DNA from: Octopus vulgaris
Taxonomy: Eukaryota
NCBI GenBank assembly: GCA_951406725.2
Contig: OX597823.1
Span: 24,738,001-24,802,000, forward strand
Direction: 5' to 3'
DNA: 64,000 nt
Numbering within the stretch: position 1 is the first letter of the stretch; the number at the start of each line of letters is the position of its first letter. A model generated the notes under the pieces. That model did no database searches. It had not been told where the DNA came from and was given only the letters and a program-made list of their open reading frames with translations. Below, one piece after another: positions 4,113 to 61,297 of the stretch. A program made the position numbers and the translations under genes.

Positions 4113-4168
<56 letters not shown>

Positions 4169-4194
4169 TGCTGTACATGTATATAATGTGTGTG

Positions 4195-4229
<35 letters not shown>

Positions 4230-4247
4230 TACTGTACATGTATATAA

Positions 4248-4297
<50 letters not shown>

Positions 4298-30100: not shown

Positions 30101-32452
30101 CGAATTTGATTTTGATTTCACTTGCCTCAACAGGTCTTCGCAAGCAGAGTTTAGTGTCCAATGAAGGAAAGGTATGCATAAGTGGACTGGTTACACCCCT
30201 GGCATTGGCCACAAGGTTATGGTCTCACTTGGCTTGCTGGTTCTTATCAAGCCCAGCATATTTCCAAAGATCCCGGTTACTAGTCATTGAGAAGAAAATG
30301 CATACATTCATACATACGTACGTACATACATACATACATACATACATGCATACATACATATATACATACATACATACATGCATACATACATTTTTATACG
30401 TGTGTTTGCATCTGTGTATGTATTTGTCTTTGTGAGCAGATGTCTTCAGATTATTACGCTCAATACTTTTCATCGTAAGATTGTCATTAACTCCTTATTC
30501 TCACCCTCCCCCAAACATACTCTCACCATTGACACCAGTTTCTTCTTTCAATTTCAGTTTACTCCGAAGTTAACTGTGGACCACCAAAAGACATTGTTGG
30601 TGCTGACAAGTCCTACAATAGCACCTCCTATAATTCTGAAGCGACCTACACTTGTCCAGAAGGAGACAAACTAAAGTCAAAATGTAAAAAGGATAATAAA
30701 TGGTCTCCAGTAAATTCTACATGTAAAGGTAATGTAAATAACTTCCTTTTTGTTGTCACTGTCAGGGTAATCTTATTTTATTTTTGTGCTAAATGTCTTT
30801 GCCAGAGGAAGTCAGCTGACTCTTTGACAATTTATGCAGTGTTTGTAGCTGGTGGAAGAGACAAAGGAAGTTGTCCTCAGACCAGATACTTCCCAAAATG
30901 CTTGCAACAGAGTGGACATCATTAATTCTATCCTAGGGTAAAGTATTAAATTGGGTGACAGATTAAGTCTCTCAACAGAAAATTTGAAATGTGATGGTCT
31001 GTTCCCTCCAGCAGATATCCATAGTTTCCATTTACCAGATTTCATCCTTAATTCCGAAGCAAATTTTTAACAAACTTTTCATCACATAACTAAGATTCTA
31101 CCCAGGACCACAGTATTTTGAAGTATTGTTCTTAACCTCATAGTCATACTGAGGATGTCTATGTAGATCTCTTAATTTCCAACCTAACCTTTTTCCCTTG
31201 TACCATGTATCCTCATCCAAAACTCTGTGCAATATAATGCTCCTAAGTCCTTCCTCACTAAAATTCAACAATCTTTTGAAATAGCCTTCCAATACTCTAA
31301 CAATTCTTCTAATCTACCACCCTTAATTATAATAAATGCAATTAATATCAATGATGGGTTTCTTTTAATTTATTCACAAGGCCAAGAATTTTTGATGGCA
31401 GGAGTTTAGACTTTTCCCTTGACTTCAGTACCTGAATAGTACTGACTTTTATCAATCCCCAAATGGATAACAGGCAAAGTTGACCTTTACTGGATTTGAA
31501 CGCAGAGCATAAAGAGCTTAAATATACAATGTTACAGATTTTTGCCAATGTTCTAATGATTCTTTGAGTGAACAATTCTTAATTATAAAAATATTAACAA
31601 TTATTAACATATAAAAGCAGATGGTATATATTTAAAAAGAAATGATGATGATAACAACAACAGTGATGACACCAATGATGTCATGAACAATGATAGCACC
31701 ATCAATAACAAGGGTGCCATCAACAATGACAATGGCAAGGACACTGACAAATCCACCAACAACAATGTTCATGGTGCATTCCTGCAAATACAGGAGGACT
31801 CTTCTCTATGGCTTATCAAGAAATCCCATGGTCCAAAATCACTGTATACACTGAGTAGATATATCCTCACCAATTGTCATCCTCTGACCTACAACCTCAT
31901 ACAGATTTGTCCCAATAACTCTTGTAAATTTTGCCACTTACACACACTTATGATTGAATTTACCCTTCCCACCCTCACTTTCATTTACAAGTGAAACTTT
32001 AAAACACAATGAATTATCAACCAAAGTTACAATTGGACATTTCAAACATCCACCTCCAACTTTCTTTTTTATGGCTTCACGAATATAACATCATAAATTC
32101 TAGATCTATGATAGAATGCATTCAGTATATTTTGTAATATATGTAGTAAATTAGTATTGAGATCACAGTGTTGAGAGGAACTTTATTCTTGTCTTGACCA
32201 CAGTATGATGACAACCTATGAAATACTGGTGCCATAATTAAATACACCTTGTACAATCTGTTAAGTAGTTGGTGTTCAGAAGGGGATCCAGCCAAGAAAG
32301 TATGCCAAAATAAAACATACAAGTGAGAAGTGCCCCCGATTTCTGACCAGGGTTTGAGGGGCAGTAACTTTGAATAAAAACTGACTCAGATATGACAAGC
32401 TGTCTAGTCCTAGCCAGCATCATGGAAAGAGGACATAAAATGATAATGATGA

Positions 32453-32500
<48 letters not shown>

Positions 32501-35500
32501 GGTTTTATATGTGTGTTGGTTTCTTGATACAAACAGGAAAAAATAGGGCTCAAAAGACAAACATATAAATTGATTTTTAACTGCAGAACTTGTGTGTGTG
32601 GGTGTCTCCCCACATGTTCAGATCATCACTTCTGATGGTCAAATCATTGTCAGAGTCTTCTCTTTTGCTCATTCCATCTTATTCCTCTTATACTTAAATT
32701 TTTCCTCAACACATTTGCACTTTCTATGCATGCACAATAATGTTGCACATTCATTAGATCACACTAGCTCCATTTCCTCTCTAGTCTTTGTACATCTTCT
32801 GTATTTATGGCCTTTCTCTCACTGCCATGTATTGTAGGTGATGATACACAAGTAACACACAATCTGCCTTTCACTCATAGTGAGAGACCTTTTGGTGCCA
32901 CCAGAGCTTATAGCTTTCTGAACTTTCTCCATCTTGTTATTCAACTATACATACTTAACATCCTCTTCCTCTGCTAATTAGGTCACCAAGTTAAGAGAAA
33001 CCATTTACAGCTTCCAGGGAACCTCCTGGGAATTCGAGAAAATCCAGTTCCTGTGTGTTTATTGTTTCTGCACATCTGTCACGTACAAAGACATCTTTCT
33101 TGGTTAACATTCCTGTGATTCCAGTGCATCTCTGATGTGTCCATATGTCGCACTGGGTACACCATATGGAATTCCTACCAACACCTTTCCTATATATTGG
33201 GCAGAGCACGCACATAATATACATGCAGTATTGATATCAATTTCTGTTCTCAATTTCAGCTTATGCAAATATTAACTGCGGAACTCCAAAGGAAGTTGTT
33301 GGTGCATCAAAGTCCTACAAAACAACCACCTATAAATCTGAAGTGACCTATACTTGTCCAAAGGGAGAACAACTAAAGTCAGTATGTGAAAAGAACAATA
33401 AATGGACTCCAGTGGTAGAAGCCTGTGAAGGTAACGCAAATAGCTCATCTACTGTTGTTTCTGTCTATGTAATTTTGTTTTATTTTTATGTTAAATGTGT
33501 TTGTCAGTGGAAGACTAACAGAATGCATACTAAGTTCTATTGTGCTTGTGGCTGATGATGAAGGAGAACTTGTTATCCTTGGATCAGAGATCTCACAAAT
33601 GCTTGCAACAGAGTGGACGTCATTAATTCTACCCAGGGGCCAGGTGATGGTATTAAACTAGAGAATGGATTAAGTCCAGGAAACAAGAGTTGGTAGCTTA
33701 GAAACTTGTTCTTCTCCTGCAAGCTTTCACATAACTTGTATCCACTATATTTCATTCCCAAGGCTTAGTTGTGAAGTTAATTTTTAATCATGCAGACAAA
33801 ACTCCACCCTCCTCGATATTGTTGTAATCTTATTACCTCCAAATCTTGATGGATATTCTCTTAATTTCTAACTTGATTTTTCTCACCCATTCTTTGTGGC
33901 ATCCTGCCTGTTAAGTGGGGATAAATATAATGTATGAGTTCTTCTTTACTAAAACTCTGCACTTCTCTGAAACAGTCTTCTGATGTTCTTGTTATCTTCC
34001 AATCCACCCCCCTTAATTATAATATTGCTACTAATAATAATAATAAAGATTTCTGATTTAGTCACAAACCAATTATTTCTGACATCATATTCATTACCAT
34101 CGTCATTTAACAGCTGTTTTCTATACTCACATGGCTTGGATGGTTTGACAGTGTCCAGTGAACCACAGAACTGCATCAAGCCCCAGTTTCCACAACTGGA
34201 TAACTTTCCTCACAGTAACCACTTTACAGTGTGTACTGGATCCCTTTCCTTGGTATTAGTAAGGTCACCATTAACTTGCAAGACAAAATAAAGGAAAATG
34301 AAGAAGTCCCCTTTTGAGAAAGAAGGAGCTACATTTGTGAAGGATAAAGTATAACAGAGGGAGGAGCATAGGTGTTTTACTATAGAGGGAATACATGTTT
34401 ACTCCATGTTATATGAGGGTGGGTGAGAGTAGCTGAAAGAGAGATAAAATTTGTGATGTTAAGGTGCCAGATCTCACTTTCAAGGCACAAGAAGGTTAGT
34501 ATAAGAAAGAATATAGACAGTTGATCAAGAGGGAAGGAAAGGGTGGATAATTTAATAAGAGTATGGGAAGAGAGTGTCAGATGGTTAGAGATTGGGCTAG
34601 AGGTAGGTGTAGTGAGGGATGAAAAAGGGTGAGTGTTGTTGATGGTAAATATCAGTATGGTGGGGAAGTTGAAAGATAGAAGTGGCTCAAGAAAGGCGGG
34701 GATGACAAGCAGCATCACATGAGAATTGGAGAGCAGCAGTATCATATATGAGTGGAGAAATGAGAAAGTAAGGAGATGACATGCAGTCGTTACCACACCC
34801 AATGTAGAATTCCTCACCATCCAGGTGACAGGCACAGCCGTAAGATGCATTACAAATCTATAGCAATTGGAAGGGCATGACCCAACTAAAATAAACATTA
34901 ACAACTGTGTGATGTGAGGGCTAAGGAGAAATGAAAGTGTCACCTCTGGAGTTTGCAAATGACCACTATACTGATACGTAACTGGACAGAATAAATTTAC
35001 AATCTATAAATGTTTTTGAATAACCAGTCACTCATCTGGGAAGGCCTTGAAATCAATGTTAGCATCTGGGGACTATGTGTGACCGAGTGATAATAGAAAG
35101 ACTGAAAGGAGGTCTGCAATCAAATAACTTTACTCAACACTTTGCAACTGATGCAAAGATACCTCTCAATTACTCGACAATTTATGCACCACATTGCAGA
35201 AATCCCAATGTAAGTGCATGTCAAAGCAAACTGTTACACTGTTGTACCATTGAATTAAAAATAGTGCTCAAATTTATGCTCGGGTAACCCTACAGCTTCC
35301 AAGAGCACAACTGTATTCGTTTTAGCTTAAATAAAATGACAAAATTGTGGGTGTTAAGTCCCCATGGAGGGGTCTTTCTAACTTGTAAGAAGATGAAACT
35401 TTATAAATATTACTTCATTTGTGTTTAATATCTATGGTTAAAATTTCATCAACAGCAAAAATATATGAATTGTCATGGGGGTTATGAACCTTATGCATAG

Positions 35501-35618
35501 AATATAATTTCCAAATTTCATAAAGATCCATTCAGTACTTTTGCCTAGTTTTGGATCATAAAAGAAATGACTAAAATTTGGGAGTTAAGGCTCCCATTAG
35601 GGTGTTATATATATATTT

Positions 35619-35699
<81 letters not shown>

Positions 35700-38600
35700 T
35701 ATTCACACACACACATACAAAGATAAATTGATAGATACAACTGAGTGGGCAAACAAAAATATGAGGTACAGCCTAGTGCTTTTTTTTATGTTGATAAGCC
35801 TGGTACTCATTCTATTAGTTTGTTCTTGTGAAATCAGTAAGTTATGTGGATGTAAATAAATGAACAACAGTTGTGAAGCAGTGATAAGGGCGAAACACAG
35901 AGACAAATACACACACACATACATTTACATATATACATACATATATATACGATTGATTTGTTTCAGTTCCTGTCTACGAAATCCATATATATTGTTGTTG
36001 GCATCCTTTTTGTCTCCGGAGACAATGGAGTTGCGCATAAAATAATCTAGTCCAGCTTTTACATTTCATATCCTAATACATCTCCTGCTGTAGCTGTGTA
36101 ATCCTATCCTGGACAAACACTCCCTCTGGCAAGTGCCGCAAATGTAGCAAAGACTTTGCCTGCCTGGTTGTAATGTAATAGTTTCTTGTTGACGTCTTTT
36201 CTTGTCTTTCCATTTCTCCTCTCTCTCTATGTCACTCCTTTGTGTTCCCTCTTTTATGGTACATCGCCAATCTCCATGGTTATTGGCAACTGCTTCCCAG
36301 TTGGTAATATTGATGTTGCAGGCATTCATGGTCCCTTTTGCAAACATCCTTGTATCGTAAGAACTGTCTTCCCACAGACCTAGTGCCCCTAGCAAGCTCT
36401 CCGAAGAGTATGTCCTTGAGGATTCTGCCATCTTCCATACGGCTAACATGTCCAAGCCATCTTATACATGTTTGTGTGTGGAGTGCAAACATGCTTGGTA
36501 TTCCTCCTTGCTTGAAGACATCTTTGTTGGGGACATGATTCTGCCATTTGATGTGAAGGATTTTCTGGAGGCAACGCAGGTGAAAGATATTTAGGCGATG
36601 CTCTTGGCGTGTGTATGGCGTCCAAGTCTCACTTCCATACAGTAGAGTGCTAAGTACACATGCCTGGTAAATCTTCATTTTTGTTGTCTTGGTCAGCTTA
36701 TTGTTGTCCCATGCCCATTTGGAGAGTTGGGCCATCACAGCAGCTGCCTTGCCAATGCGTATATTGAGCTCAGCATCAAGGGATAGGTTGTAGGTGACGG
36801 TAGAGCCAAGATAGGTAAACTTCTCCACCTCCTATATTCTGTGGTCTCCAATATGTATGTTTGGGTTATCCGATGTAGCCTGACCCATGATGTTGGTCTT
36901 CTTGGGGCTGATAACTAAGCCAAAGTCGCTACATGCTTGCTCAAAACAGTTGATGAGCCTTTGTAGGGCTTTTTCTGTGTGTGATACCAGAGTGGCATCA
37001 TCAGCAAATAGCATCTTCTTGATCAGGATGCTTCTGATTTTGGTCTTGGCTTGCAGACGCGAGAGATTGATCAGTTTCCCGTCACTTCTACTGTGCAGAA
37101 ACACTCCATCATCTGATGTCTCAAAGGCATATAACAGCAGCAGCAAGAAGATGCCAAATAATGTAGGAGCAAGAACACAAACTTGCTTTACCCAATTTTT
37201 TATTTGGAAGGCGGCTGATGTTGAACCATTGTGCTGTATGGTGCCTTGCATATCATCATGGAAAGATTTGATGATCCTCAGCAGCTTTGGAGCAGGATGA
37301 AGAGGCCTTTTCTACTTACCAAGTCAAAGGCCTTTGTCCGATCAATGAAGGCCATATATAATGGCCTTTTCTGCTCTCTGGACTTCTCCTGAAGTTGGCG
37401 TATGGAGAATATCATGTCAATAGTTGATCTGCTTCTTCTAAAACCACACTGTGATTCTGGATAAATTCGAGAAACAAGCAGTTGTAGCCTGGACAGGATA
37501 ACGTGAGCAAAGGCCTTTCCAACAGTGCTCAGAAGAAATATTCCACGGTAATTGTTACAATCACCACGGTCATCTTTGTTTTTGTAAAGCGTAATGATGT
37601 TAGCATCCCGCATATCCTGAGGGACTGTACCCTCTTCCCAGCTCTGACACAGAAGCTCACGAAGGTGCCAAAGCAGGATGGTGTTTTTGCCAGTTTTGAT
37701 GATCTCAAAAAGGATGCCGTCTTTTCCCGGAGCATTGGTGAGCTCTGCTATAGATAGCAGACTGTCAAGTTCACACATGACTGGCAAGATCTTGACACCC
37801 TCGATTGCAGCCTCAGCTACTGTGGTCTCCCATAAGTAGAGATCCTGGTAGTACTCCACCCATCTATCCATTTGCTTGCTTTGGTCCTTCATGATATCTC
37901 CAGTAGTTGATTTCAGAGGGGCTGACTTGGTTGCGGATGAACCGAGAGCCTTCTTCAAACTGACATACATCCCACAGGTGTCACCACTGTCAGCAGCTGA
38001 CTGGATACTCTGACAGATTTCCTGCCAATACCTATTTGCACAGCATCTGGCAGTCAGTTGGATTTTATTTCTTGCCTTTCTGAGTTCTTCGAGTGACTTT
38101 GTAGAAGAATCACTCTTGTATTGCATCAGAGCTGCACGCTTTGCTTTGATAACTGTTTCCAGCTCTTAGAGCTCAGCACTGAACCAATCTGGGTTTTGCC
38201 TTTCTCTCATGCTGAAAGTATCTATTGATGTGGTATAGAAAGCTTCCTGATATAATTCCACCTACTTTCAGCAGAGGAGATTGGGCAGCTACTGAGGGCA
38301 ACCTTGATAGAAACATATATGTATGTATATATGTAAGTGTATGTGTTTTGGTATTGGCAACATGAATGACAATGGTCAGAGACTACTTGAATTTTGCACA
38401 CACCATAACCTGTGCATCACCAACACATTCTTTGCTAACAAGACATCCCACAAGGCATCTTGGAGTTTGCCATCATGGTTTATTATTAATTAAGCTTATG
38501 TCGATTCCTCAGTGGTGTTAGTTTGCATTTATAAAAGAATAGATATATACAAATTATAAAAATGATTTTAAAAATATACAATACAGTATTATTTCTACTT

Positions 38601-40323
38601 CATGGATTTTCACCTATTGTGGGTGGTTTTGGAGCATAACACATGTGATAATCAAAGCGATTATTGTATAAAAAATTATTACTATTGTTGTTATTTACAC
38701 TCCCCTAAATTTTCCTTTAATTCCAGTTTCTCAGATCAATTTTGTGAAAGTAAAAGATGCAACTCTGGATGTATCCGGGAAAATATTGTGGAAAGAGAAA
38801 AATGTAACAGCAGATGCTTGTGCGGAAGGATGTTTGTCTAATGAAAATTGTTTATCATTTGAAATAAATAAAAATGATGGAAAATGTTACTTTTCAAGGC
38901 AAACAGCAGCTACCAACAAAAAAATGAAGACAACCAAGAGCAGAGATTACTACCAACGAGTTAAATGTAATTCCGTGCATTTTATTATTGCAATTCTCTT
39001 TTCCTCTTACTTCTAAAATTTGTGATTCCATTTGTAATTCATAATGTACAGACATTGACATGACTCTGTCTTTACAGAAAGACATAGACATATTCCTGAA
39101 AAACAATGAGCAATATTAGGAAATGGAAATACTGAATTTGTTCCTTTTGAACACTTTTATGCATGTTTCAATTGTATTTTATGTAAGTTAAGAGCATTCT
39201 GATAAGGAGAGAGCTACTTCTCCTTGAACAATTACTGCTGTGTCTGAAATAGTTGAAATAGGTCAGCTTGTGTACGTTTTTTTGTTTACTAGTCTTCAAA
39301 TGGAGAAGATCACTTTCCCAAAAGAAGTTTTCTGTCACAAGGGTACTGACCAAAAATTTCACTCTTCGAATTCAAGAAGACACCCTGATCATGCAAATTC
39401 AGTCATTGTCTTCTTGGCCAAACAAAGTTTACACCATTTACTTCCATTGAAGCATGGCACAAGTTATTCTAACAGCTTCCAAGTACCAATTGCAATTCAT
39501 AGTTGCCCCCAGCAGAACATTTTTGGGGGCTTGCTCTGCTCTCATGTCAACTCCAACTTCTCTGACATGTTTCTGTTGTTGTTGTTGTTATTGTTTCTAC
39601 TAATACTACTACTGCTGCTGCTGCTGCTGCAACTACTACAACTGCTACTTTATAGATATATCTAAAATAGATGATTATGCACATGTACCAGCAATCAAAA
39701 CTTTGAGTAAAATATGGGAAAGCCTTGTGTTGCATTATTTTATAAGTGGAGGATACATAAAAATAAAAACAGTACCCATTATTTTCCAGTGTAAGACATT
39801 GTAAGTATTGAGATATGTTTTGAAATAAGTGTCAAGATGTTCTACAGCACACATGGATTCTGATTAGGGTGACATTTTGAGAATCAATCATTTCTTTATT
39901 ATAAATCATGCATTTACATAATTTTGTACAGATACTTTACAATATCTAATGCATGAATGTGGTGTGTGTGTTTTGGGTAGTTGGAGGAGTGTAAAATGTA
40001 TTTCTTGTTCTCTCTTTCTTTTTCCAGCTGACAAACCTGTTATGTTTAGAAAAGCTAGCTTGCCAAGCAAAGCTACTTTAGGACAGCTTGAGGATAAAAC
40101 TTTAAAAGAGTGTGATAAGGCCTGTCATCACTATATAGGATGTAACTCATACCAGTACAATGCTGAAGCTAAGTTGTGTGATCTGAGTAATGTGACTCAG
40201 TTAAATAATGTACTTAAACCCAATGATGGAAATTGGGATATATTTTTGCTTAACCCAGGTGAGTAGTGTTTCCATTTTATTTATTTTGTACCTGTGAGTT
40301 TACATATATGTGTGTAGTGTGTA

Positions 40324-40355
<32 letters not shown>

Positions 40356-49300: not shown

Positions 49301-52300
49301 TTTTGTTTTCAATTGTCTCAATCTTGCTTTAAATTCCAGTTGCTCAGATCCATTTTGTGAAAGTAAAAGATGCAGTTCTGGATGTATCTGGGAAAGCATT
49401 GTTGCACAAGAAAAATGTAACAGCTGATGCTTGTGGTAAAGAGTGTTTGTCTGACAAAACTTGTTTGTCATTTGAAATGAATAAAGAAAACGGAGATTGT
49501 TACTTATCAAAGCAAACTGCAACTAAATCCAAGAAAATGAAATCAGACAAAAGCAGAGATTACTACCAACGAATAAAATGTAATTATTTTTTTGTATTTT
49601 ATCGTTGGATTCCCTTTGCCTCTTTTCTCTGTAATTTGTGATTCTATTTGTACTTCATGATATGTATATACAACCATTTCTGTAAAGACATTGACAGGGT
49701 TGCCTAAAAGATCTGTGGTAGGAGTAATTAGTGCGGAGTTGGAAACTGGGATATCCAAGCATATCTAAAAGGTAAAATGTGAATAAAAGAGAGAGTGGGA
49801 ATAGATTAAGAGGAATTGATGGGGTAGAGGTTGCAAGTGTTTGGGAGCAGAGTGAGAGAAGTTAGATAGCTTGTGGATGATTATGGTGAATAGTGGTCAA
49901 GGATGGAGTGATGATTGATGATAAACATGATTTTGAGGGAAGGGGACAGGAGGTGATGGCTAGTAGTATAGAAAGGGTGAAGAACATCAGAATGTTAATT
50001 ATAAAATAATAGAAATGGGGAAGAAAACAGAGAGGGAGATTAAGGGTAGGTTTTAAGGTGTGTCTAGAGAGTGAGAGATCTTGAGTGATAGGTGGTCAGG
50101 GGTAGATAAGTGTGAGTCAACTGAAAATGGTTCAGGTGAGAGGGAAAGACAGAAAGGAAAATATGTGTGGGAAAAGACAACGTTAAGAATGAAGGATGAA
50201 TGCAAAAGGATGTGGTAATAGGGAGTGAGAGAGATAATTGATAATGCAAACAATGATGATGAAATAAGTAGTTCTAATCTCATTTAACTATAACAGCAAA
50301 ATAATGCAGATGTGAGGAGCACAATGAAGGGAAATAAGGGGTGTGGAAAGCTTAACTGTAACAAGTTTGGTGAAGGACCCAGTTGTGAGCACATACATTA
50401 TGTTTCCAGAACATTAGCTTCACCATGTTGAGCAGGTCTTGCAACCTTGTAGCAATGCGATTCATATACAATTCTCATACAATCTGATTTTTACTCTAAG
50501 AGAGAAGCCTTTTGTAAACCAAAGAAAGATAATAGCTCTCTGAACTTTCTCCAACTCTTCTTACTTTGGCTATTATTCTTTCAGTACACCCCATTCCCTT
50601 CTAATTATATCACCTAGGAACAGAAGCTATCTACTGCCTCCAGAGAGTTTCTCGGGCATTTGAGAAAATCACTTTCCTGTGCACTCTTACTGTTTATTGT
50701 TCTTGCACATCTTTCACAGACAAAGCTTACTTTCTGTTAACCAGCCTGTGATTCTACAGCACCTCTTGTGTATTCATAGTTCACTCTGATTACATGATAT
50801 AGAAGTTCTACCTGCTCCTTTTCTACATATTGAGTAATGTCATTTCCTTTATGGAGGTATAGTTGTGTCTCATTTCCTACTTATTAAAACTTAAGTGTTT
50901 ACTAAGTTAATTTTCATGCCATTTGCTTCCACACCCTGCATTTCATTTCTAATTCCACAACAGACTGGCTATTATAACAAGGTCATTAGCATAGAATGGT
51001 TTCCATGGGCATTCATTCTTAAACTTCTTTGTTATGACCAGGAGGACTACAACAAAAAGAAAAGAACTCCAAACCAAGCCCAGGTGAACTACTACCTGCA
51101 CAACAGATTTGCTACTGCACTCATTGCTAACTTTCACAATAAGCGATTTTCTTATGAACTACATTAGTTGAGTACATTAGTAACACCATATGGCTTTATC
51201 AAAGCCTCAAATATGAAGTGCAATTTAGTTGGGAAAAGAATTACATTTATGTATATTTATAGGATAAAGCATTACCAAGAAGAAAGCAAACATGTACATG
51301 GGGAGGAAAATCAAGGGCTTCTCCCATAAATAGAATAACATTAGTTTTAAGATGTGTATTAAGATGGGTGTATACAGTTTTAGATAAAGAGTAATTAGAT
51401 CTAACAGTAGAAATATATGCATGCATACACACACACACACACACACACACTCACTCATATACGAGTGTGTATGTATCTGCAGGTACTTGATAGCATCACA
51501 ATGCCAAATTGTGCTCATTTTCAAGAGACATTGCATTTAGTTACTTCTGAAGTCAGATGTCAGTTTAGTTGGAGAGAAATAATGCAGTTATTAATAAAAA
51601 CAGCTGAAATTAATACCTACGAGAATTCACAGCTCTAGTATCACTCCTTTATAGTCAGTGGAAACACCCAGCTTCACTTGTTCCAAAGAAGGCCATGGTT
51701 GTTTCATCTGTGGGGGAGGTGATGGTCTTAGTTTGTTGAGATAAAAAAGGCATTATGTTTATTGACTATCTTCAAAAGGGCCATACCATCAATGAAGAGT
51801 ACATTACCAACTTGCTGAGTCAGTTACAAAAAGCTATCATGACCAAACACCCAGGAAAACTGATGAGGTCTTGTTTCATCAGAACAATGTTCCAGCACAC
51901 AAGTCCTTGGTTTCATGGTTGCTATGTCTGGCTGTGACTTTGATCACTCTTACTATTCTCCTGATTTGGCCCCATCTGACCATCATCTATACCCCAACAG
52001 GAAAAAAACACTTGGCTGGGAACCAGTATTGCAGTGATGACATCATATCTGCCGTTGATGGCTTTTTTTTAGTAGTAGGAAGAAAGCTTCTTTACCAATG
52101 GGATCCAGAGCACTGCAATACCAGTGTAAGAAGTATATGGACCACACGGGGAACTATATTGAAAAATAAACCTCATTTGGTTAAATTCCATGAGAGTATT
52201 TTGGTCAAGGTATAAACTTTTCAGCTGACTTCGTATTTGTTATAAATAAATTCTACATTTAAAACAATTTATGAATTGGTTGCTATATAATTTTTAATTT

Positions 52301-55300
52301 GTATGTGGGAGTATAAAAAGTATTTCTTGTTTACTTTCTTATTTTTCTAGCCAAAGATGATGTTTTGGTACTTAAAAGCACTTCCATACCAGGGCATGAT
52401 AGTTTTGAGCGGCTGAAAGATGTGAGCTTAAAGGAGTGTGATCATGCTTGTCATCAAAATCCAGGATGTAACTCTTATGAGTATAATGAAAAACTTAAGT
52501 TGTGTGATCAAAGTAATGTGACTCACTTGACTCAAGACCTTCTACCCAACACATGGGAATGGAATACTTACATCATTAACCCAGGTCAGTAGAGTGTTTT
52601 TATTCTTTTGCTTTGTATGCTTACATATCTATATGTTTGTATGTATTTACATATACCTAAATGTGTGTTTATAATATATATAAACTGCACTGTGGATACC
52701 ATAACCTCAGCCCCTGTGTGAACTTGGATCCTCATAGCTTATCAGCTGGAGCACTCAGACTGCATATAGATTAATTTAGGTTACTAGTGACCTAAAATCT
52801 TCATATTCTGCATATACATATTCCACATGCTGGTAGCTGCCTGTGCTGGTGGCTGCCCATGCTGGTGCCACATAAAAAGCACCTTTGAGCATTGGGCCTC
52901 ACAGAGGCAATGTGGCTGATGTTGGTGTCATGTAACTAGCACACCAGTGACACATAAAAAGCACCTTCCATATGCTGGGCTTCACAGAGGCAATGACAAA
53001 TTACATACTTAAGAAGATCCATCAAACCAAGTGAAATCGTAGTCATGGCAGATATTGGTGTCATGCAAACTGACACCCACACCAGTGTGCATGTAAAAGC
53101 ACTTGTTACACTCTCAGAGTGGTTGGCTTTAGGAAGGGCATCCATCCACAGAAACCATATCAAATCAAACTAGAGTCTGGTGCAACCTTCAGCCTACAAG
53201 CTCCAGTCAAACTGTCAGCCCATGCTAGCATGAACAACAGATGTTAAACAATGATGATATTGATGATATGTGTGGATAGTATTTAAGGACACATGCATTT
53301 TTAGTCATTATTTTATTTGACTAATTTTTATTGAACTTCTATTTCAGAAAAAAACAATGACAGGCCATATGTTTACTAATGAACTGAAAATGCATGCTGT
53401 GATTGTGGCTCTGAAGGCTAAGCATGGTGATTTAGAAATTTCTCATTTTCTGAAAGTTGCAACATCTTTTGTCCACAAGATTCAGTGTGAGTTAGAGAAA
53501 GAAGATGGAAGCATATTACCTGTATCAAAATGTAAAAAGCATTCCAAACGCTCTGATTCTATCAGGACACCTGAATTTATTCAGAAAGTTAAGCAAAACA
53601 TTGAAGACAATCCAGGAAAATCAATGAAGTCAATTGCAAAAACATTTTGTGTACCAGAAAAAACAATCAGAAATGCTGTGCATGAAGACATCAGATACAA
53701 ATCTTAAATGATGAGGTGAGGTCAATTCATGTCAGAAAAAGCAAAAGAAAACTATTTAATTAAATCCAAAAGACTTTTGAACAAACTTAAAAATTCATCA
53801 GAAGATGGTGTGATTTGGTTTTTCTTAGATGAGAAAAACTTTGACTAGGACCAGAAACTAATAAAAGAAATGACAGATGGATATGTACAGTCCCTTCTGA
53901 GATTCCAAGAGTAATGTACACAAAATTTCCAGCAAGTGCCATGGTTTTAGGTGTTGTTAGCAATGACAGACATGTGATGCCGCCTCACTTTTTACTACAA
54001 GGCCTTAGGGTGAATGCTGCTACATGTATTGAGGTTCTGGATAAAGTTGTTAAGCCTTGGGTCAACAATGTATGCAATGGGATGCCTTATGTCTTTCAAC
54101 AAGATTCTGCACATGGCTCATATGACACAAGAATGGATGGCCAACAATTTTCATGATCACATCACCGCCAACATTTGACCTCCTAATTCTCCAGATCTCA
54201 ATCCACTGGACTACTTTGAATGGAACATCATTGAGAAAAATGTCAATTAACTCCCCCATAGCATCTTATAAAGCTAGATTTATATATCCTAAATTTGCAG
54301 AAGAATTTGTCATTGGGTCAGTTTAGCTTAATGGTAAAGCACTGTAATCACAGAGATGTGAGTTCGAGTCTCATGGGTGGCCACTAACTGATTTTTCTGC
54401 AAAATATGGATAGTTTATCCTGCATTTGAGAATAAAATTATTCCCTTATCTGTATCTTTCAATACATCTCAATGCTTCTAAATTAAACTTTGTTTGTTGA
54501 CTTTCAATGTAAGTTGAATGTAAAGTTGAATTTAGCATACATATATATTATATATAAATATAATATGTGACAAATAGTTGGTTGTCATAATAAAACTCAG
54601 AGTTTTGGATACTGGGGTTGAAGTCTGCTCTGGCATCTCATCAGTTATTAAGCCAAAAACGCTATGTAAAAACTGTTGAATAAAGATAAATTATTCCAAC
54701 AGGCATGGTGAAAGTAATACTTCATTCATAGAATCCACATATGCACACATATACACACTCACACACACATGTACGCGCACACACACACACATGTATGTCT
54801 ATATATCTAAATACATACACACTCATGTGTATATACATACAAACACACATATATACATATATACGTCTACGCATACACATACGTTCACCTACATATATGC
54901 CCATGCACGCATCATTACGCTCATATATACATCCCTACACACACACACATATATATACATACATACATGGATATACAAAATTTAGTTTATATACACATGC
55001 ATATACATATGTGGAATACATATATACAAATAAAAACACATACGCAAAAATGCACACATCATTATGTTCATATACACATCTCTATGCGCACATACACATA
55101 CATACGCAGATATACAAAATGTAGACTATACGCACATACACATATATACATGGATAGACGTATATACAAATAAAAACACATACACAAAAAACATAAACCA
55201 TAAAACATTCACATTTGCTGCGAAACTTGAATATATAAATGAGTTATATATGTATATACACAAATACACCCTCCTGTCTGTCAAATACATCTACATCTGT

Positions 55301-57709
55301 AGATATATAAACATATATACATACATATATGTATGAAGGAAGTACAACAGGTAGAGTCTTGCACTCGTATATATACTGTCATTAATACACATGTATATGT
55401 GCATGCACATATACATTAGGTGTATACTACACACATATAAGTTACACAGTTATAAAGGGTGAAAAATAATATACAGAAAAAATATATGAAGTAATAAAAT
55501 ATATAAATATGTAAGAGATATTAAGACATATGAAAGGCTTGTATGTGGACGTAATATAAAAAGCCGGTTCTATCTGTGATCTTGTTGGGTCCAGAAATGT
55601 AGCAAATATTTTGCCAGATGTGGACACGACCCAAAAAGTTCAGTTCTTGGACTTTTCCAGATAAGCCATCTTTCCATATTGCAAAAACAGAACTTTCCAC
55701 TATGAGGCTCACTGAAAGATCTTGGCCAAGTGTAAGCCTTACACCAACAGTAGTGGAAAGTGTGGTCTTTGCAATATGGAAAGATGGCTTATCTGAAAAC
55801 GTTCTTTAGAACCCGCTGGAATTTTCAGATGTGGAAGAAGTGAAGAAAAGAAACAATAGAAATGTTAAAAGGCATCACTTCACAAAAGTTCCAGCACTGC
55901 TTCAGACAGTGGAAAACACACCTGGTCTGATACATTGCTTCAAATGGAGAATACTTTGAAGGTGATAAAAGTGTAAACATGTAAAGCTAAGTGAATAAAA
56001 TAATATTTGGGTAACCCCTCATATATACATAAATACATACATTGATGCTTACATACATACATATATACATGCATACACAGTGTAAAACTCAACAATCCTC
56101 TGAAACAGATTTCCGATATTCTTGCTATCTTCCAATCTACCACCCTTACTTATAATAATATTAATGATAATTTCTGATTTAGGCACAAAGCAAACATTTT
56201 CTGACAGATGCTTTTTTTTTCAATACCTCAATCCCTACAATTTGACTAGTATATTATGTTATCTATCCCTGCAAGTAAAGTTGACCTCAGCTTGATTTTA
56301 CCTAAAAAGCAAAACATTACAAAATCAGTAAAGTTATATTTAGTTACATCTTTTAACATTGTGGCTTCAAATCCCAACAAAACATACTTCACTTGTCTTC
56401 ACTAAGGAAATAACAAGGGACCAGGAGTTGTGGCAATTTGCTGAGGATGCACCAAGATAAGTCAAGTCGCTGTTATCTATACATATAAGTTTGTCCTTTA
56501 CAGGTGCTGGTGCCACATACAATTCACTCATGCTGGTGCTGCATAAATGTACCTATGCCAGTAGCACAAACATACATTCATATGTATTTATTTGTCACTG
56601 GCATGGATGTACATACATACATTCATACACACACATACATACTTACATGTATTATATCTATGTGCAAATTTCATTAATTTGATTCACTTTGTATCTTTTA
56701 TTGTAACATTGTCATTATTTCTTTATTCTCATCCTGTTCCTAATATTGATGTCAATTTATTTCCTCAATTTCAGTTAACTCAAAAATTAACTGTGGACAA
56801 CCAAAAGACATTGTTGGTGCTGAAAAGGACTACAAATCTACCGACTATAAATCTGAAGTGACCTATACTTGTCCATCAAGTGAGACAATAAAGTCTATAT
56901 GTGAAAAGAACAGCACATGGACTCCAGTACCACCTATTTGTTACGGTAACATAAATAGCTTCTCTCTTATTGTTTTTGTCCATGTAATTTTGTTTTATTT
57001 TTGTGCTAAGTGTCTTTGTCAGAGGAGGACTGACAAACTCTATGACAATTTCCACAGTTATTGTAACTGGTAGAAGCTATCCTTAGAGAGGAATTTATCC
57101 TCAGACCAGAGACCTCACCAAATACTTGTAACAGACTGCATTCCCTTAATTCTTCCCAAGGGCAAGGTAATGCTATTTAATCAAGTGATGGATTAAGTAT
57201 GCTGATCAAGAACTGGTAGTTTGAAAGCTTCCACATTGACCTTTCTCGCCAATACTCTTTGTCATCATTACACTGTGGCTTCAAATCCCAACAAGACATA
57301 TTTTACTGGGCTTCACTAAGGAAATGAAAGGGACTAAGAGTTGTGGTAATTTGCTGTACTTAGGAGGATGTGCTTAGTTAAGTGAAATTGGTGTCATCTA
57401 TACATACAGGCTTGTCTTTTCCAGGTGCTAGTGCTGCATAACATGCACTCATGCTGGTACTGCATAAAAGCACCCATACCAGTGGCACATTAAGAGCACC
57501 CAATACACACACTGTAAAGTGTCTGGCATTAGGAAGGACATCCAGCCTGAGAAATCATGTCATAACAAACAACTGGAGTTTGGATGGCACCCTGGCTGGC
57601 AAGTTCCTGTCAAATCATCCAACCCATGCCAACATGAATGATAGACGTTAAATGATGATGATGATGATGATGATGTGTGTGTGTGTGTATATATATATGT
57701 ATTTATATT

Positions 57710-57765
<56 letters not shown>

Positions 57766-59045: not shown

Positions 59046-59079
<34 letters not shown>

Positions 59080-61297
59080 TGTATGTATGTATGTATGTAT
59101 ACAGATAGATAGATAAATAGATAGATAGACAGACAGACATTATTGGAGCAAAGTATGAGTGAACTTGAGATCAAGCAGAGAGAATGCAAATCCTTAATTC
59201 ATATGCTATAAATGATCATGATATCTTGGACTATAAAAATCTGCAAACCTTCTTAAGGTTTAAAGTTCCTTCACAACCTTGCTATCTTGTCAAAATCTAT
59301 TCTCAAATTAAAAGGAGAAGAAAATACACACACTCACACATACAAGGTATCCCCCCACACACACACACACCAAATGATTGATTATTAAGTTAGTATTTAT
59401 GAATAGAAATTAATAGAAAGGAATTTTTTTGTGTACAGTTATTTTCAAACTGAAGGCCATTTTGCCTAGGCACTATTGATAATGTGAAGTAATAAAATTG
59501 GAAACATAAGAAACATTTTGTTTGGTATGTGTCTATTTTTACACAACAGTTGTTTTTGGTTCATCGACTTCTGCTTGTTTTGTACCATAAATATTATTTT
59601 GTAAGCATCTGCATAAAAAAAACTGAGTGATGTAAGATTTGGAGACGGCAGAGTTTATTTTACAGAATCTCTTCTTCTTCCACTCCTCCAGTTCAGCCCC
59701 ACCTCATCAAGATTAGTCATTACTGTGATAGTCTGGGGGTGCTCTGTCTTCCTGGAAATAAAACTCCACATCTTCAAAATCCTCTTGAATGCTTGGCATG
59801 GTAGATAGTCATCGCAGGTTCAAGTAAATAAGATCGCTCACTGTACTATCAAAAAGAATGGTCTGGTTATTCAATTTGAATATAAGCTGTGCCATACTTT
59901 TAACTCCTGATAAATTAACGTGATGTTCCTCAGTAATATGTGGATTCTAAGGACCCCAGAAGGTTGACTGTGACAGCTGAGCCATTTAATTTAGATACAG
60001 CCTCATCACACTAAACAATCTTTCTTAGAATGTATGCACTTCCTATACATCTTGTCAAGTACACACACAAAACTCTGGGACTATAGAAATCTAAAGATTT
60101 AGAGGATAATGAATAAAACAAAATGCTTTCCCTTACAATCTTACTAGCAAGCAGGTGGCCAATCAAAGTGTATTCTAAATTAAAAAGAGAAAAAGAACAT
60201 GCATGCACGCACGTGCACATACACAGGCATACACACATACTTACATACATGCATACACACACACATACATACATGCATGCATGGTGGCTGCCCCCTCGTT
60301 ATCGAGTGTGGCCATTGCGCAAAGCTTAATCAATGTTGTTATCATGCAATGCCTGTGCAAGAAGATTTTTTTTAAAGTGAGGAAAGGCTGTGCACTGAGT
60401 CAGTCCCACTCACTAAGCAACAGCAGCCATAATCCAAAAAGAAGAACAAGTCAACAGCATCAGTAACCACTGAGCCACAGGTTTTATGTCAGAGTTATCC
60501 CAGTTACCTGAGTTACCTTCTCCTCGAAGGATGCCCTAACAAACGCTAGAAGTTCTTCACTCCCAATGGTTTAACCGCATGGTCGGGTATTCAGTCCAAT
60601 TATTTCTATGTCCCCACGCATGATACAGCCTTAAGACATTTATTGGATGGCCGTTGACTCTCAAGAGTTCCTCCACCCTTTGACGGGTTTTGTTTTTCAT
60701 CCCGCAGGGTGTCCAATAAACACCCTCCTCACCAAGCAAGCAAGCTTGGTGGGGTTGCCGGTTTAGTCGCTGACGACCCGACCATGCAACAGGTTGTACT
60801 GGGTTACATGTTACCAGTAGCACTCGAAAGTGACCTGACATACACATGCATGCATACATACATACATACATACATACATACATACATACACATACACACA
60901 TACATACATACATACATACACACACACACATACATACATATATACATACATACTTACATATATACATTTTTATATGTGTGCTTGCATCTAAGTATGTATT
61001 AGTATGCAGATGTCTTCAGACTGTTTCACTCAATATTTTCATTGTAACATTGTCATTATCTCCTTATTCTCACCCTCCCCCAAACATACTCTCACCATTG
61101 ACACCAGTTTCTCCTTTCAATTTCAGTTCACTCCAAAGTTAACTGTGGACCACCAAAAGACATTGTTGGTGCTGACAAGTCCTACAATAGCACCTCCTAT
61201 AATTCTGAAGTGACCTACACTTGTCCAGAAGGAGAACACTTTAAGTCAATATGTAAAAAGGATAATAAATGGTCTCCAGTAAATTCTTCATGTAAAG
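1252..61297 (+). CDS. Partial multi-exon gene (18 exons in window) encoding a large extracellular-type mosaic protein of tandem PAN/Apple and Sushi/CCP domains; 5' and 3' ends lie outside the window
   Basis: 18 exons with polypyrimidine tract + AG acceptors and GT donors. All are phase 1-1 with lengths 240/234/231/171 nt, all are open, and junction codons are sense (GTT, GAT, CCC, ATT, CCT, TCT, GCT, TCC). Cys spacing matches PAN (C-x3-C-x5-C-x11-C) and CCP (C..PP...Y..EVTYTC...C....W......C). That they form one transcript is inferred. Confidence 0.85.
1689..2945 (-). mobile_element. Degenerate DNA transposon, CMC/Chapaev3-like transposase remnant
   Basis: Minus-strand fragments [45 protein letters not shown] and [22 protein letters not shown], with frameshifts; terminus begins CAC. 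Family assignment is from motif recall. Confidence 0.55.
2952..3212. mobile_element. Short non-autonomous interspersed element (possibly Helentron-associated)
   Basis: gcaaatttcattgaatctatccagcagttcttgagatatc followed by acagacaaacaaacaaac and an imperfect terminal hairpin accttc..gaggt; abuts the Chapaev-like remnant. Confidence 0.35.
4110..4345. repeat. (AT)n microsatellite with a duplicated ~63-nt spacer unit
   Basis: Long TA runs separated by two copies of tggt(g/a)ctgtacatgtatataatgtgtgtg. Confidence 0.9.
4700..6150 (+). repeat. Segmental duplicate (S1 and flanking introns) of ~18320-19795
   Basis: Intron ~5120-6030 is nearly identical to ~18740-19650; this explains the twin ORFs 5450..5665 and 19073..19288. 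Confidence 0.92.
4853..5023 (+). CDS. Exon S1: short Sushi/CCP domain
   Basis: ccag|TT..AAAG|gtaaca, 171 nt; [56 protein letters not shown] (not in the ORF track; translated by hand). Confidence 0.88.
6314..6553 (+). CDS. Exon A1: PAN/Apple domain type A (Lys-rich)
   Basis: ctag|AT..AAAC|gtaatt, 240 nt; [79 protein letters not shown]. Confidence 0.88.
6584..7091 (-). mobile_element. Non-autonomous Helitron-like element inserted 30 nt downstream of exon A1
   Basis: On the minus strand it begins TCTACTATAAT and ends with a GC-rich imperfect hairpin then CTAG, inserted at A|T. It has an internal direct duplication. The paralogous position after A3 (cactggaatttt) lacks it. Confidence 0.55.
7355..7588 (+). 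CDS. Exon B2: PAN/Apple domain type B
   Basis: ctag|CC..AAAA|gtgagt, 234 nt; [77 protein letters not shown]. Confidence 0.85.
7850..8170. repeat. AT-rich inverted repeat (MITE/foldback-like)
   Basis: aaattataccatttagaaaaattacata...gtaatgtgcaaaataata (~7878-7968) is the reverse complement of tattattttgcacattac...tatgtaatttttctaaatggtataattt (~8018-8108); flanked by (TA)n. Confidence 0.75.
8225..9075. repeat. Compound (TA)n/(TG)n/(TATG)n low-complexity tract
   Basis: Direct inspection: (GT)n at ~8558-8598, (TATG)n at ~8968-9060. Confidence 0.9.
9750..10282 (-). mobile_element. Degenerate RTE-like LINE 3' fragment
   Basis: Minus-strand [22 protein letters not shown]; similar sequence at ~32600-33200 and ~50480-50950. 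Confidence 0.5.
11380..12100 (-). mobile_element. RTE-like LINE reverse transcriptase fragment
   Basis: [45 protein letters not shown]. Confidence 0.75.
12846..13085 (+). CDS. Exon A2: PAN/Apple domain type A
   Basis: ccag|TT..AAAC|gtaatt, 240 nt; [79 protein letters not shown]. Confidence 0.88.
13830..15080 (+). mobile_element. Highly decayed Penelope-like retroelement remnant
   Basis: Similar to ~21430-22350, which encodes a degenerate [19 protein letters not shown] motif resembling the Penelope KIFNRNTVKVSYSC region. Confidence 0.35.
16144..16377 (+). CDS. Exon B3: PAN/Apple domain type B (closest paralog of B1)
   Basis: ttag|CT..CCAG|gtcagt, 234 nt; [77 protein letters not shown] (translated by hand). 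Confidence 0.9.
16990..17255 (+). mobile_element. RTE-like LINE RT fragment (same family as 11380-12100)
   Basis: [51 protein letters not shown]. Confidence 0.75.
17256..18300 (-). mobile_element. RTE (BovB-like) LINE RT fragment, frameshifted
   Basis: [28 protein letters not shown]; [12 protein letters not shown]; LLFVDDATL; FIYLGCTIS. Confidence 0.85.
18480..18650 (+). CDS. Exon S2: short Sushi/CCP domain (paralog of S1)
   Basis: ccag|TT..AAAG|gtaaca, 171 nt; [56 protein letters not shown]. Confidence 0.88.
20757..20996 (+). CDS. Exon A3: PAN/Apple domain type A (paralog of A1)
   Basis: ctag|AT..AAAT|gtaatt, 240 nt; [79 protein letters not shown]. Confidence 0.88.
21430..22350 (+). mobile_element. 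Highly decayed Penelope-like retroelement remnant
   Basis: ORF 22128..22364 [33 protein letters not shown]; sits in the paralogous position to 13830-15080 (after a PAN-A exon). Confidence 0.4.
23780..25500 (-). mobile_element. Degenerate non-LTR retrotransposon, R4/Dong-like RT
   Basis: [20 protein letters not shown]; [14 protein letters not shown]; [13 protein letters not shown]; MEFGLKKC; [21 protein letters not shown] second fragment lies at ~40370-40770. Confidence 0.75.
25863..26096 (+). CDS. Exon B4: PAN/Apple domain type B (paralog of B2)
   Basis: ccag|CT..ACAG|gtcagt, 234 nt; [77 protein letters not shown]. Confidence 0.9.
27199..28020. repeat. Long inverted repeat (foldback), arms ~300-390 nt, spacer ~130 nt
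   Basis: gtgaaatgttttgtaaatatttccatagtcttcaaatagtctgtc (27200) pairs with gacagactatttgaagactatggaaatatttacaaaacatttcac (ends ~28019); inner pairs gacctaaaagtgacct/aggtcacttttaggtc and ggttggaattgttctaa/ttagaacaattccaacc. Confidence 0.9.
28367..28492. repeat. Near-perfect 62-bp-arm palindrome
   Basis: tatatgagtgcatctttttcctgattgatggtctcctaggcaactcatgtatatatttatat - ct - atataaatatatacatgagttgcctaggagaccattaatcagggaaaagatgcattcatata. Confidence 0.92.
28546..29665 (-). mobile_element. Degenerate mariner (Tc1/mariner) transposon
   Basis: Minus-strand remnants of LLQ(H)[20 protein letters not shown] and [10 protein letters not shown]; paralogous copy at 57817-58985. Confidence 0.75.
29670..30290 (-). 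mobile_element. SINE-like repeat with (TGA)n tail (family also at ~9345-9560, 10305-10620, 41120-41530, 46440-46690, 48740-49072, 52830-53270, 57300-57675, 61900-62056, 63972-64000)
   Basis: Shared core catcatcgtttaa.g.ccgctttccatgctagcatgggttggac...ctggatgcccttcctaac.ccaaccactcc in many copies on both strands. Confidence 0.8.
30300..32460 (+). repeat. Segmental duplicate (S3 and flanks) of ~60845-63150
   Basis: Colinear; the first ~560 nt after the exon differ at about 9 positions by hand count. This explains twin ORFs such as 31098..31292 and 61601..61861. Confidence 0.92.
30558..30728 (+). CDS. Exon S3: short Sushi/CCP domain
   Basis: tcag|TT..AAAG|gtaatg, 171 nt; [56 protein letters not shown]. 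Confidence 0.88.
33260..33430 (+). CDS. Exon S4: short Sushi/CCP domain
   Basis: tcag|CT..GAAG|gtaacg, 171 nt; [56 protein letters not shown]. Confidence 0.88.
35605..35702. repeat. (AT)n/(AGAT)n microsatellite
   Basis: Direct inspection. Confidence 0.9.
36030..38310 (-). mobile_element. RTE (BovB-like) LINE, 5'-truncated and frameshifted, including RT and 3' end
   Basis: ORFs 37278..38126, 36832..37251, 36280..36828 and 36066..36455: [57 protein letters not shown]-terminal [17 protein letters not shown]. Confidence 0.9.
38727..38966 (+). CDS. Exon A4: PAN/Apple domain type A
   Basis: ccag|TT..AAAT|gtaatt, 240 nt; [79 protein letters not shown]. Confidence 0.88.
40028..40258 (+). CDS. Exon B5: PAN/Apple domain type B
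   Basis: ccag|CT..CCAG|gtgagt, 231 nt (one codon shorter, frame kept); [76 protein letters not shown]. Confidence 0.9.
42700..44860 (+). mobile_element. L1/Tx1-like LINE RT remnant
   Basis: [64 protein letters not shown], and later GGLGMP; frameshifted. Confidence 0.85.
45237..45407 (+). CDS. Exon S5: short Sushi/CCP domain
   Basis: tcag|TT..AAAG|gtaaat, 171 nt; [56 protein letters not shown]. Confidence 0.88.
49340..49579 (+). CDS. Exon A5: PAN/Apple domain type A
   Basis: ccag|TT..AAAT|gtaatt, 240 nt; [79 protein letters not shown]. Confidence 0.88.
51660..52232 (+). mobile_element. Mariner transposase 3' fragment
   Basis: [16 protein letters not shown]; FHQNNVPAH; degenerate YSPDLAPSD. 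Confidence 0.7.
52351..52584 (+). CDS. Exon B6: PAN/Apple domain type B
   Basis: ctag|CC..CCAG|gtcagt, 234 nt; [77 protein letters not shown]. Confidence 0.9.
53290..54265 (+). mobile_element. Degenerate IS630/Tc1/mariner (maT/DD37D-like) transposon
   Basis: HTH region [14 protein letters not shown]; WFFLDEKNF; MVLGVVS; YVFQQDSA; [12 protein letters not shown]; internal stops. Confidence 0.75.
54316..54383 (+). pseudogene. tRNA-like sequence (tRNA pseudogene or SINE head)
   Basis: A-box TAGCTTAATGG, D-stem GCTT/AAGC, T-arm GTGAG-TTCGAGT-CTCAT, imperfect acceptor stem; the anticodon arm is too short for a functional tRNA. Confidence 0.45.
54735..55440. repeat. (CA)/(TA)/(TACA) low-complexity tract with an internal duplication
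   Basis: Direct inspection; tatatacaaataaaaacacatac occurs twice. Confidence 0.85.
55653..55799. repeat. Inverted repeat, ~48-nt arms and 48-nt loop
   Basis: cagataagccatctttccatattgcaaa..actttccacta pairs with tagtggaaagt..tttgcaatatggaaagatggcttatctg. Confidence 0.85.
56775..56945 (+). CDS. Exon S6: short Sushi/CCP domain
   Basis: tcag|TT..TACG|gtaaca, 171 nt; [56 protein letters not shown]. Confidence 0.86.
57817..58985 (-). mobile_element. Degenerate mariner transposon (paralog of 28546-29665)
   Basis: [22 protein letters not shown]; same terminus taccaga(c/t)tgagtcaaaa as the 28546 copy. Confidence 0.8.
61127..61297 (+). CDS. Exon S7: short Sushi/CCP domain (close paralog of S3)
   Basis: tcag|TT..AAAG|gtaatg, 171 nt; [56 protein letters not shown]. 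Confidence 0.88.

Follow-up and report, generated by a model that had tools for sequence, protein, structure and literature searches.

Two Sushi exons of a giant octopus gene, here termed S3 and S7, raise the question of why copies of one exon should differ only in codons that alter the protein while the intron behind them has remained nearly identical. Both lie in the window, that is, the whole stretch of 64,000 nt analysed here (Octopus vulgaris assembly GCA_951406725.2, contig OX597823.1, positions 24,738,001 to 24,802,000, numbered from 1 along the forward strand), S3 at 30558-30728 and S7 at 61127-61297, each 171 nt long, bounded by AG and GT and of phase 1-1. A preliminary description of this DNA had reported 10 nucleotide differences in 8 codons, every one changing the residue and four of them between Cys2 and Cys3, followed by only about 9 differences in the next ~560 nt of intron, and had read the pattern as diversifying selection after duplication. 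Our recount returned the same numbers (S3/S7 codons TAC/CAC, GAA/AAA, GCG/GTG, GAC/GAA, AAA/CAC, CTA/TTT, AAA/ATA and ACA/TCA; 9/560 in the intron). As to their origin, we consider it probable, with some reserve, that S3 and S7 form a gene-conversion mosaic in which an old 7-nt island has survived.

Exon array and protein model

A profile search in six frames identified 18 exons on the forward strand of the window, seven Sushi and eleven PAN/apple exons of two types, arranged in the order A1 S1 B1 A2 B2 A3 S2 B3 A4 S3 S4 B4 A5 S5 B5 A6 S6 S7. Among the PAN/apple exons, A1 (1257-1484, given as profile-match limits) and B2 (12854-13081) were placed by the profile search, B1 (6319-6549) and A2 (7360-7587) additionally by Pfam, and A3 (16149-16376), B3 (20762-20992), A4 (25868-26092) and B5 (49345-49575) by the profile search together with a match to the O. 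vulgaris protein CAI9728796.1, while all three lines of evidence coincided for B4 (38732-38962), A5 (40030-40257) and A6 (52356-52583). The Sushi exons S2 (18480-18650), S5 (45237-45407) and S6 (56775-56945) were delimited by splice sites and the match to CAI9728796.1; splice sites and Pfam Sushi scores supported S1 (4853-5023; 24.4 bits), S4 (33260-33430; 21.8 bits) and S3 (29.7 bits), and S7 scored 24.4 bits. Pfam agreed with the domain calls in all nine exons tested, and the PF00084 gathering score of 20.7 bits was exceeded by each of the four Sushi exons tested (S1, S3, S4, S7).

CAI9728796.1 (P0009 in our protein set) comprises 4283 aa with 24 Sushi and 37 PAN matches and a C-terminal GON domain (PF08685, residues 4063-4250, 113.6 bits) that lies outside the window. 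Over the span from A3 to S7, each of the 14 complete window domains matches this protein at 100% identity, with S3 corresponding to residues 329-384 and S7 to residues 872-927; as it probably derives from the same assembly as the window, it does not constitute independent evidence. Eight exons (S3 S4 B4 A5 S5 B5 A6 S6) form a macro-unit that starts with S3, S7 opens the next one, and units of this S3-S6 type are present about five times in P0009. S3 and S7 are corresponding exons in two neighbouring macro-repeats of a PAN–Sushi–GON gene. Two further relationships were observed within the array. Positions 570-7640 and 15449-26145 are linked, in segments of 75-90% identity, by a macro-duplication that involves a different unit (A-S-B-A) and is older than the 8-exon units, which it precedes. 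The A6-class PAN domains of different macro-units (P0009 1159-1234, 2255-2330 and 3068-3143 versus window A6) are 83-96% alike, well above neighbouring domains, a likeness of sequence that suggests either further conversion or stronger constraint.

Across the seven Sushi exons of the window C6, C32, C42, W48 and C55 are unvarying, and the gap between Cys2 and Cys3 spans only nine residues in all of them, which we take to be shorter than in typical CCP modules. The predicted Sushi model (pLDDT 80.5) places residues 37-42 in a strand following the 32-36 turn that carries Cys2. A Foldseek search with this model gave no match at E<=0.001; the best 22 structural neighbours listed (VIA) are CCP-bearing by title, at low Z scores of 4.2-4.9. 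The C-terminus of P0009 displays no obvious membrane anchor by eye, and, considering what is generally known of PAN, CCP and GON modules, the protein is likely secreted and would serve as a multivalent binding scaffold.

Differences between S3 and S7

The earlier statement that no codon difference is purely synonymous holds codon by codon, but CTA/TTT hides one obligatory synonymous step on either mutational path, so that the count becomes 9 nonsynonymous (N) to 1 synonymous (S) change. Simulated sets of 10 random substitutions lacked purely synonymous codons in 7-11% of cases, and the dN/dS of the pair (2.7-3.4 by counting, 2.6 by GY94) was not different from 1 (binomial p 0.21-0.31; GY94 likelihood ratio test p 0.33). 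The N:S excess therefore does not sustain the proposed diversifying selection in this pair.

Comparison of exon and flanking intron led to a similar outcome. Against the 560 nt originally chosen, the exon excess was confirmed (p 0.005), but this downstream segment is the most similar flank available, and the excess disappeared with symmetric flanks (17/325; p 0.46) or when the 7-nt island described below was counted as a single event (p 0.29). The 160 aligned nt upstream of the exons hold 16 differences (10%) and all aligned S3/S7 intron 177 in 1814 (9.8%), both above the 5.8% of the exon itself.

A homogenised tract and a 7-nt island

Change-point segmentation of the S3/S7 alignment revealed a mosaic of divergence, with 16% at 30393-30490, 2.3% at 30491-30666, 5/7 at 30667-30673, 2.3% again at 30674-31380 and 11-14% beyond; the 7-nt segment separates on its own only at the lower of the two change-point penalties. 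The homogenised tract thus covers 30491-31380 on the S3 side (forward strand; 2.3% divergent outside the island, in line with contig depth) and 61060-62121 on the S7 side (forward strand; from the alignment, with coordinates by offset from the S3 side). Beyond it follows old paralogous intron at 31381-32469, which differs by 11-14% from 62122-63163, a low-complexity patch excepted, and is represented by 1x contigs in the sequencing runs X3 and X4. The quiet intron would accordingly date the homogenisation and not the duplication, the outer paralogous intron being 11-16% diverged.

The S7 side also contains an insertion of 172 nt at 61893-62064 that is absent from S3, shows a 7-nt target-site duplication and presumably belongs to the SINE-like elements. 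It is situated near the 3' end of the tract, and four differences are bunched directly upstream of it, so that the tract may actually end there. Related copies occur in the window near 29669, 41337, 46443, 53069 and 57475.

The island corresponds to codons 36-38, reading D-K-L in S3 (30667-30673) and E-H-F in S7 (61236-61242, both on the forward strand). Half of the exon differences (5/10) are packed into these 7 nt (P about 0.0002-0.0005), a cluster which had previously not been singled out. Within the tract, the exon excess had a p of 0.025 when all 10 differences were counted, of 0.29 when the island was treated as a single event and of 0.44 when it was removed. Outside the island, 5 N changes compare with 2.9 expected at the intron rate of the tract (P 0.17); when only the three nucleotides shared with another species (see below) are subtracted, 6 N changes compare with 3.0 expected (P 0.088). 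Strong constraint (omega 0.2) on the lineage-specific S3/S7 changes was rejected (P 0.0003). With the exception of position 28, the eight differing positions vary above average across 78 Sushi domains (permutation p 0.017).

These observations are most readily accommodated by an old duplication that would have given rise to the two macro-repeats, whose introns still show 11-16% divergence, and by gene conversion that would later have overwritten ~0.9 kb around the exons, now 2.3% divergent. The seemingly recent duplication of S3 and S7 would then be a consequence of this overwriting. A patchy or double tract is the likeliest reason why codons 36-38 were spared, though selection may also have acted against their conversion. 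The five scattered changes would have arisen after conversion at an about neutral rate, four of them at family-variable positions. Replacement of the exon region by a short duplication of recent date would leave the same picture as conversion, and the nonsynonymous nature of all five non-island changes leans, together with the 6 N changes noted above, towards selection rather than neutrality. The search for a donor of a micro-conversion among the other copies of the window was given up, as the longest identical run through exon nucleotide 114, which S7 shares with S5 over 5 nt and S3 shares with S2 and S4 over 11 nt, was too short to call.

Comparison with Octopus bimaculoides

The S3-class domains of predicted proteins, five from O. 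vulgaris and two from O. bimaculoides, were compared at the protein level. Six residues (codons 4, 16, 21, 23, 25 and 29) are exclusive to S3 and S7 among these seven domains, whereas E36-H37 is exclusive to S7 and residues 283-338 of the O. bimaculoides protein P0001. The E-H pair was found in 2 of 78 distinct Sushi domains, and D36 occurs in S3 and the other four S3-class copies, one of which has a gap of one residue next to it. The remaining six residue differences between S3 and S7 are lineage-specific, three per copy.

The unit containing P0001 283-338 is nearest to the S7 unit at the S5-class domain (86% versus 77-80%) and at the B5-class domain (86% versus 79-83%), and its assignment rests on these two neighbouring domains, the O. 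bimaculoides counterpart of S3 lying outside the model. The Sushi domain alone is closer to unit c (84% identity) than to S7 (80%), and the tree of S3-class domains gives no clear branching order. P0001 1140-1195 was considered as S3 orthologue and rejected, being 93% identical to P0009 2659-2714. As far as predicted proteins can tell, affinities change along the exon, its 5' half following the species and the island apparently following the copy, a pattern typical of conversion that spared a patch. At this protein level, the six residues joining S3 with S7, together with the 2.3% tract inside intron of 11-16% divergence, agree with a duplication older than the speciation and with flanks that group by species. 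Part of the island likely predates the split from O. bimaculoides, the age of D36-K37 being deduced from the other copies, and the conversion itself is probably younger than this split; alternatively, E36-H37 could represent parallel changes at a variable site.

Matching domains of the two species are mostly only 75-93% identical, and throughout the 18 exons divergence between copies is about that of the adjoining alignable intron. Because of these two features, the whole gene appears to be evolving fast.

A second tract at S1 and S2

The S1/S2 pair had been put forward as the first case of the same selective pattern. Its omega of 0.75 and the similar divergence of exon (36/171, 21%) and adjoining upstream intron (13/68, 19%) contradict this assignment. 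Instead, segmentation and alignment located a second homogenised tract at 5116-6055 on the forward strand (partner at about 18740-19680), which is wholly intronic, 940 nt long and 3.2% divergent and starts 93 nt past the exon. Judged by this alignment, S1/S2 is the same phenomenon as S3/S7, presumably conversion, with the exon lying outside the tract. Both tracts lie in the equivalent part of the intron that follows a Sushi exon and are of similar age. Only these two, among 44 self-alignments of at least 250 nt, contain a 100-nt stretch with fewer than four mismatches.

Possible selection on the Sushi repeats

The role of selection was assessed with codon models for the seven Sushi exons of the window, using our own implementation rather than PAML and naive empirical Bayes (NEB) posteriors, on 7 sequences of 56 codons. 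A single omega (M0) of 0.71 was not different from 1 (p 0.096). M2a was preferred over M1a (2dL 8.8, p 0.012; p 0.036 after correction for three domain classes) with 25% of codons at omega 2.6 and posteriors above 0.8 at sites 16, 18, 23, 34, 37, 38, 41, 52 and 54, the values for codons 37 and 38 being 0.99 and 0.96. For neither of the two PAN classes was M2a significantly better (p 0.13 and 0.26). Of 12 variants of the Sushi analysis (range of p 0.003-0.16), 10 kept the signal at p < 0.05, among them those lacking S3, S7 or codons 36-38, and p was 0.03 when doublet mutations were allowed; the signal failed with assumed intron-like base frequencies (p 0.093) and without S6 (p 0.16). Null simulations reached the observed value in 0/20 cases without and 1/19 with conversion. 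From these alignments, positive selection on the Sushi family appears plausible and modestly supported, and there is modest support for a range in which the variable positions would be positively selected or at least very weakly constrained.

Two explanations concern the role of selection and are both compatible with the conversion mosaic. According to the first, the Sushi modules act as spacers with neutral drift at positions outside the core, and the site signal is false, caused by conversion, base composition or clustered mutation. We regard this relaxed constraint as a serious possibility that falls somewhat short of being probable: the M0 estimate, the agreement of exon and flanking-intron divergence in 19 of 21 Sushi pairs and the two conditions under which the signal fails are what it predicts, and conversion can mimic positive selection, as described in excerpts of PMC3924837, but the persistence of the signal in most variants and its rarity in the small set of simulations with conversion speak against it.

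The second explanation holds that conversion is recurrent and that tracts running over codons 36-38 are purged, with these residues giving each repeat a binding specificity of its own, in the manner of opsin exon 5. A selected peak of this kind, a concept that excerpts of PMC3924837 and PMC2588116 describe, might explain why the strongly clustered island (P about 0.0002) holds the only two differences shared across species, why codons 37 and 38 receive such high posteriors and why they fall at the start of a predicted strand after the 32-36 turn; the S1/S2 tract, moreover, ends 93 nt short of its exon, although two tracts are too few for testing exon avoidance. We nevertheless consider it rather unlikely, given that the case comprises only 7 nt and two tracts, that the tract is already 2.3% diverged and gives no sign of frequent or ongoing conversion, that published peaks cover windows of about 200 nt (PMC2588116), and that the NEB support is partly circular with S3 and S7 in the data.

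The model proposed initially, in which diversifying selection after a recent duplication led to fixation of all eight residue changes, is very unlikely and largely refuted by the mosaic. If all changes were of the same age, 9 N changes would stand against 3.0 expected at the intron rate of the tract (P 0.004), and the family-wide M2a result with its null simulations and doublet variant points in the same direction; however, the diverged flanking intron argues against a recent duplication, two of the residues are common to another species, the exon N:S ratio is not significant and the PAN classes lack a comparable signal.

Other sequencing runs

Contigs from other runs bear on the possibility of assembly error. 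The outer intron at 31351-31640 was kept as two single-depth contigs in runs X3 and X4 (two of the four runs examined), one with 2 differences and the other with 33 differences and 3 gap positions, which is exactly the S3/S7 count of the window in this intron. The tract itself was collapsed in X3 and X4, where the single contigs that represent it stand at 1.41x, 1.87x and 1.40x the depth of single-copy sequence; two near-identical copies with popped bubbles should give ~1.5x, and X4 record 26 (1.87x) is deeper than predicted. Both copies are consequently present in other samples. One X4 contig equals S3 at all but one position over 30651-30877, island included, and S7-type island letters were absent among the contig rows listed, with 372 further rows beyond those listed; the X3 and X4 contigs cannot be phased. 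Run X18 was left out, as it contributed only pieces of 85-92% identity that are not phasable to copies, and run X13, guessed to be RNA, yielded pieces of intron but none across the exon, which makes it uninformative on expression or splicing. The G at 30566 does not serve to mark S3, since another unit also has E3.

That the tract or the exon differences are artefacts of assembly or polishing is scarcely credible: the array is highly repetitive and its summed depth indicates many related copies, but X3 and X4 reproduce both outer introns and the collapsed tract, the X4 contig matches S3 across the island, and an O. bimaculoides protein carries the E-H pair.

Relation to known systems

Mosaic divergence under conversion is well described (PMC3924837, in excerpt), as is its capacity to imitate positive selection. 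Excerpts of PMC3924837 and PMC2588116 report introns homogenised by conversion around a coding patch that remains diverged, the 'peaks of divergence' of the Teshima-Innan model, for human red/green opsin exon 5 and the Drosophila transporter pair CG18281/CG17637. As far as these excerpts go, the octopus case resembles both in its old tandem duplicates, within-species homogenisation of introns and a coding patch whose affinities between species apparently follow the copy; it differs in that the peak spans 7 nt, lies between repeats of one gene model, is judged against protein-level outgroups, rests on one or two tracts and involves no known functional difference. Homogenised repetitive introns also occur in spidroins (PMC9779670, in excerpt). 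The Argiope MaSp2 genes treated there share hierarchical exon/intron macro-repeats, a giant repetitive protein and intron homogenisation with the octopus gene; in the parts of that source considered, their introns and coding units are homogenised throughout (94-99.7%), in contrast to only two local tracts and folded modules 20-30% diverged in octopus. The process is therefore already known, while the gene is apparently unstudied.

For the analysis of other repeat arrays, a note of caution follows, as a conversion tract makes introns seem young and exons accelerated and thereby fools the exon-versus-intron test. If selection kept the island, its codons would become candidate specificity residues of a possible cephalopod recognition protein. 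Taken further, one might envisage an octopus-restricted PAN–Sushi–GON protein that functions as a diversified multivalent recognition array, directed at microbes or gametes, in which selection keeps a patch of 2-3 Sushi residues distinct against recurring intragenic conversion. We regard this as a speculative and, on balance, unlikely scenario; if true, a map of conversion would pinpoint the specificity-determining residues of the Sushi repeats.

Related Octopus models and their annotation

Named matches in length-limited homology searches were all Octopus models (2/2; 7/8, the eighth match being distant and unnamed; 9/9), a result that does not prove absence in other taxa. The domain types and macro-unit of the window gene are shared by O. 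bimaculoides LOC106869390, LOC106869402 and LOC128248837-40, by O. sinensis LOC115215518 and LOC118764741-2 and by O. vulgaris CAI9728796.1 and CAI9728789.1. Within the literature covered, which leaves most subscription journals aside, no paper was found on this Octopus PAN/Sushi/GON family or joining octopus with the GON domain, nor any mention of the family identifiers searched, LOC106869390 among them.

All of these PAN/Sushi repeat models are uncharacterised or automatically misnamed. CAI9728796.1 has the C-terminal GON domain in common with ADAMTS9/20 and GON-1, whereas the reprolysin metalloprotease and TSP1 repeats of ADAMTS20/GON-1 proteases are not among the nine Pfam families listed for it; its 'ADAMTS20-like' label is not supported by the sequence of the model, which begins mid-domain with the true N-terminus beyond it. 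Similarly, the Octopus models share many Sushi modules with SVEP1/polydom, whereas vWA, EGF and pentraxin are not listed for P0001, P0002, P0003, P0007 or P0009, and the precomputed domain list of CAI9728789.1 (P0005), named SVEP1-like, consists of PAN and Sushi only. Both names are ill-suited to models that are PAN and Sushi arrays, to which P0009 adds a C-terminal GON domain. The locus hence offers a lead to a very large, fast-evolving modular gene cluster that is apparently unstudied and mis-annotated as ADAMTS20- or SVEP1-like.

Beyond the exons, Rfam gave no match in 29000-33500. The introns of the window contain broken frames resembling LINE reverse transcriptases and mariner-type transposases, recognised by eye from their translations, on the reverse strand at 17208-18303, 24374-25522, 29010-29472 and 36283-38165 and on the forward strand at 42853-43674, 51796-52212 and 53845-54153. 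Several PAN and Sushi array models are clustered in each Octopus genome.
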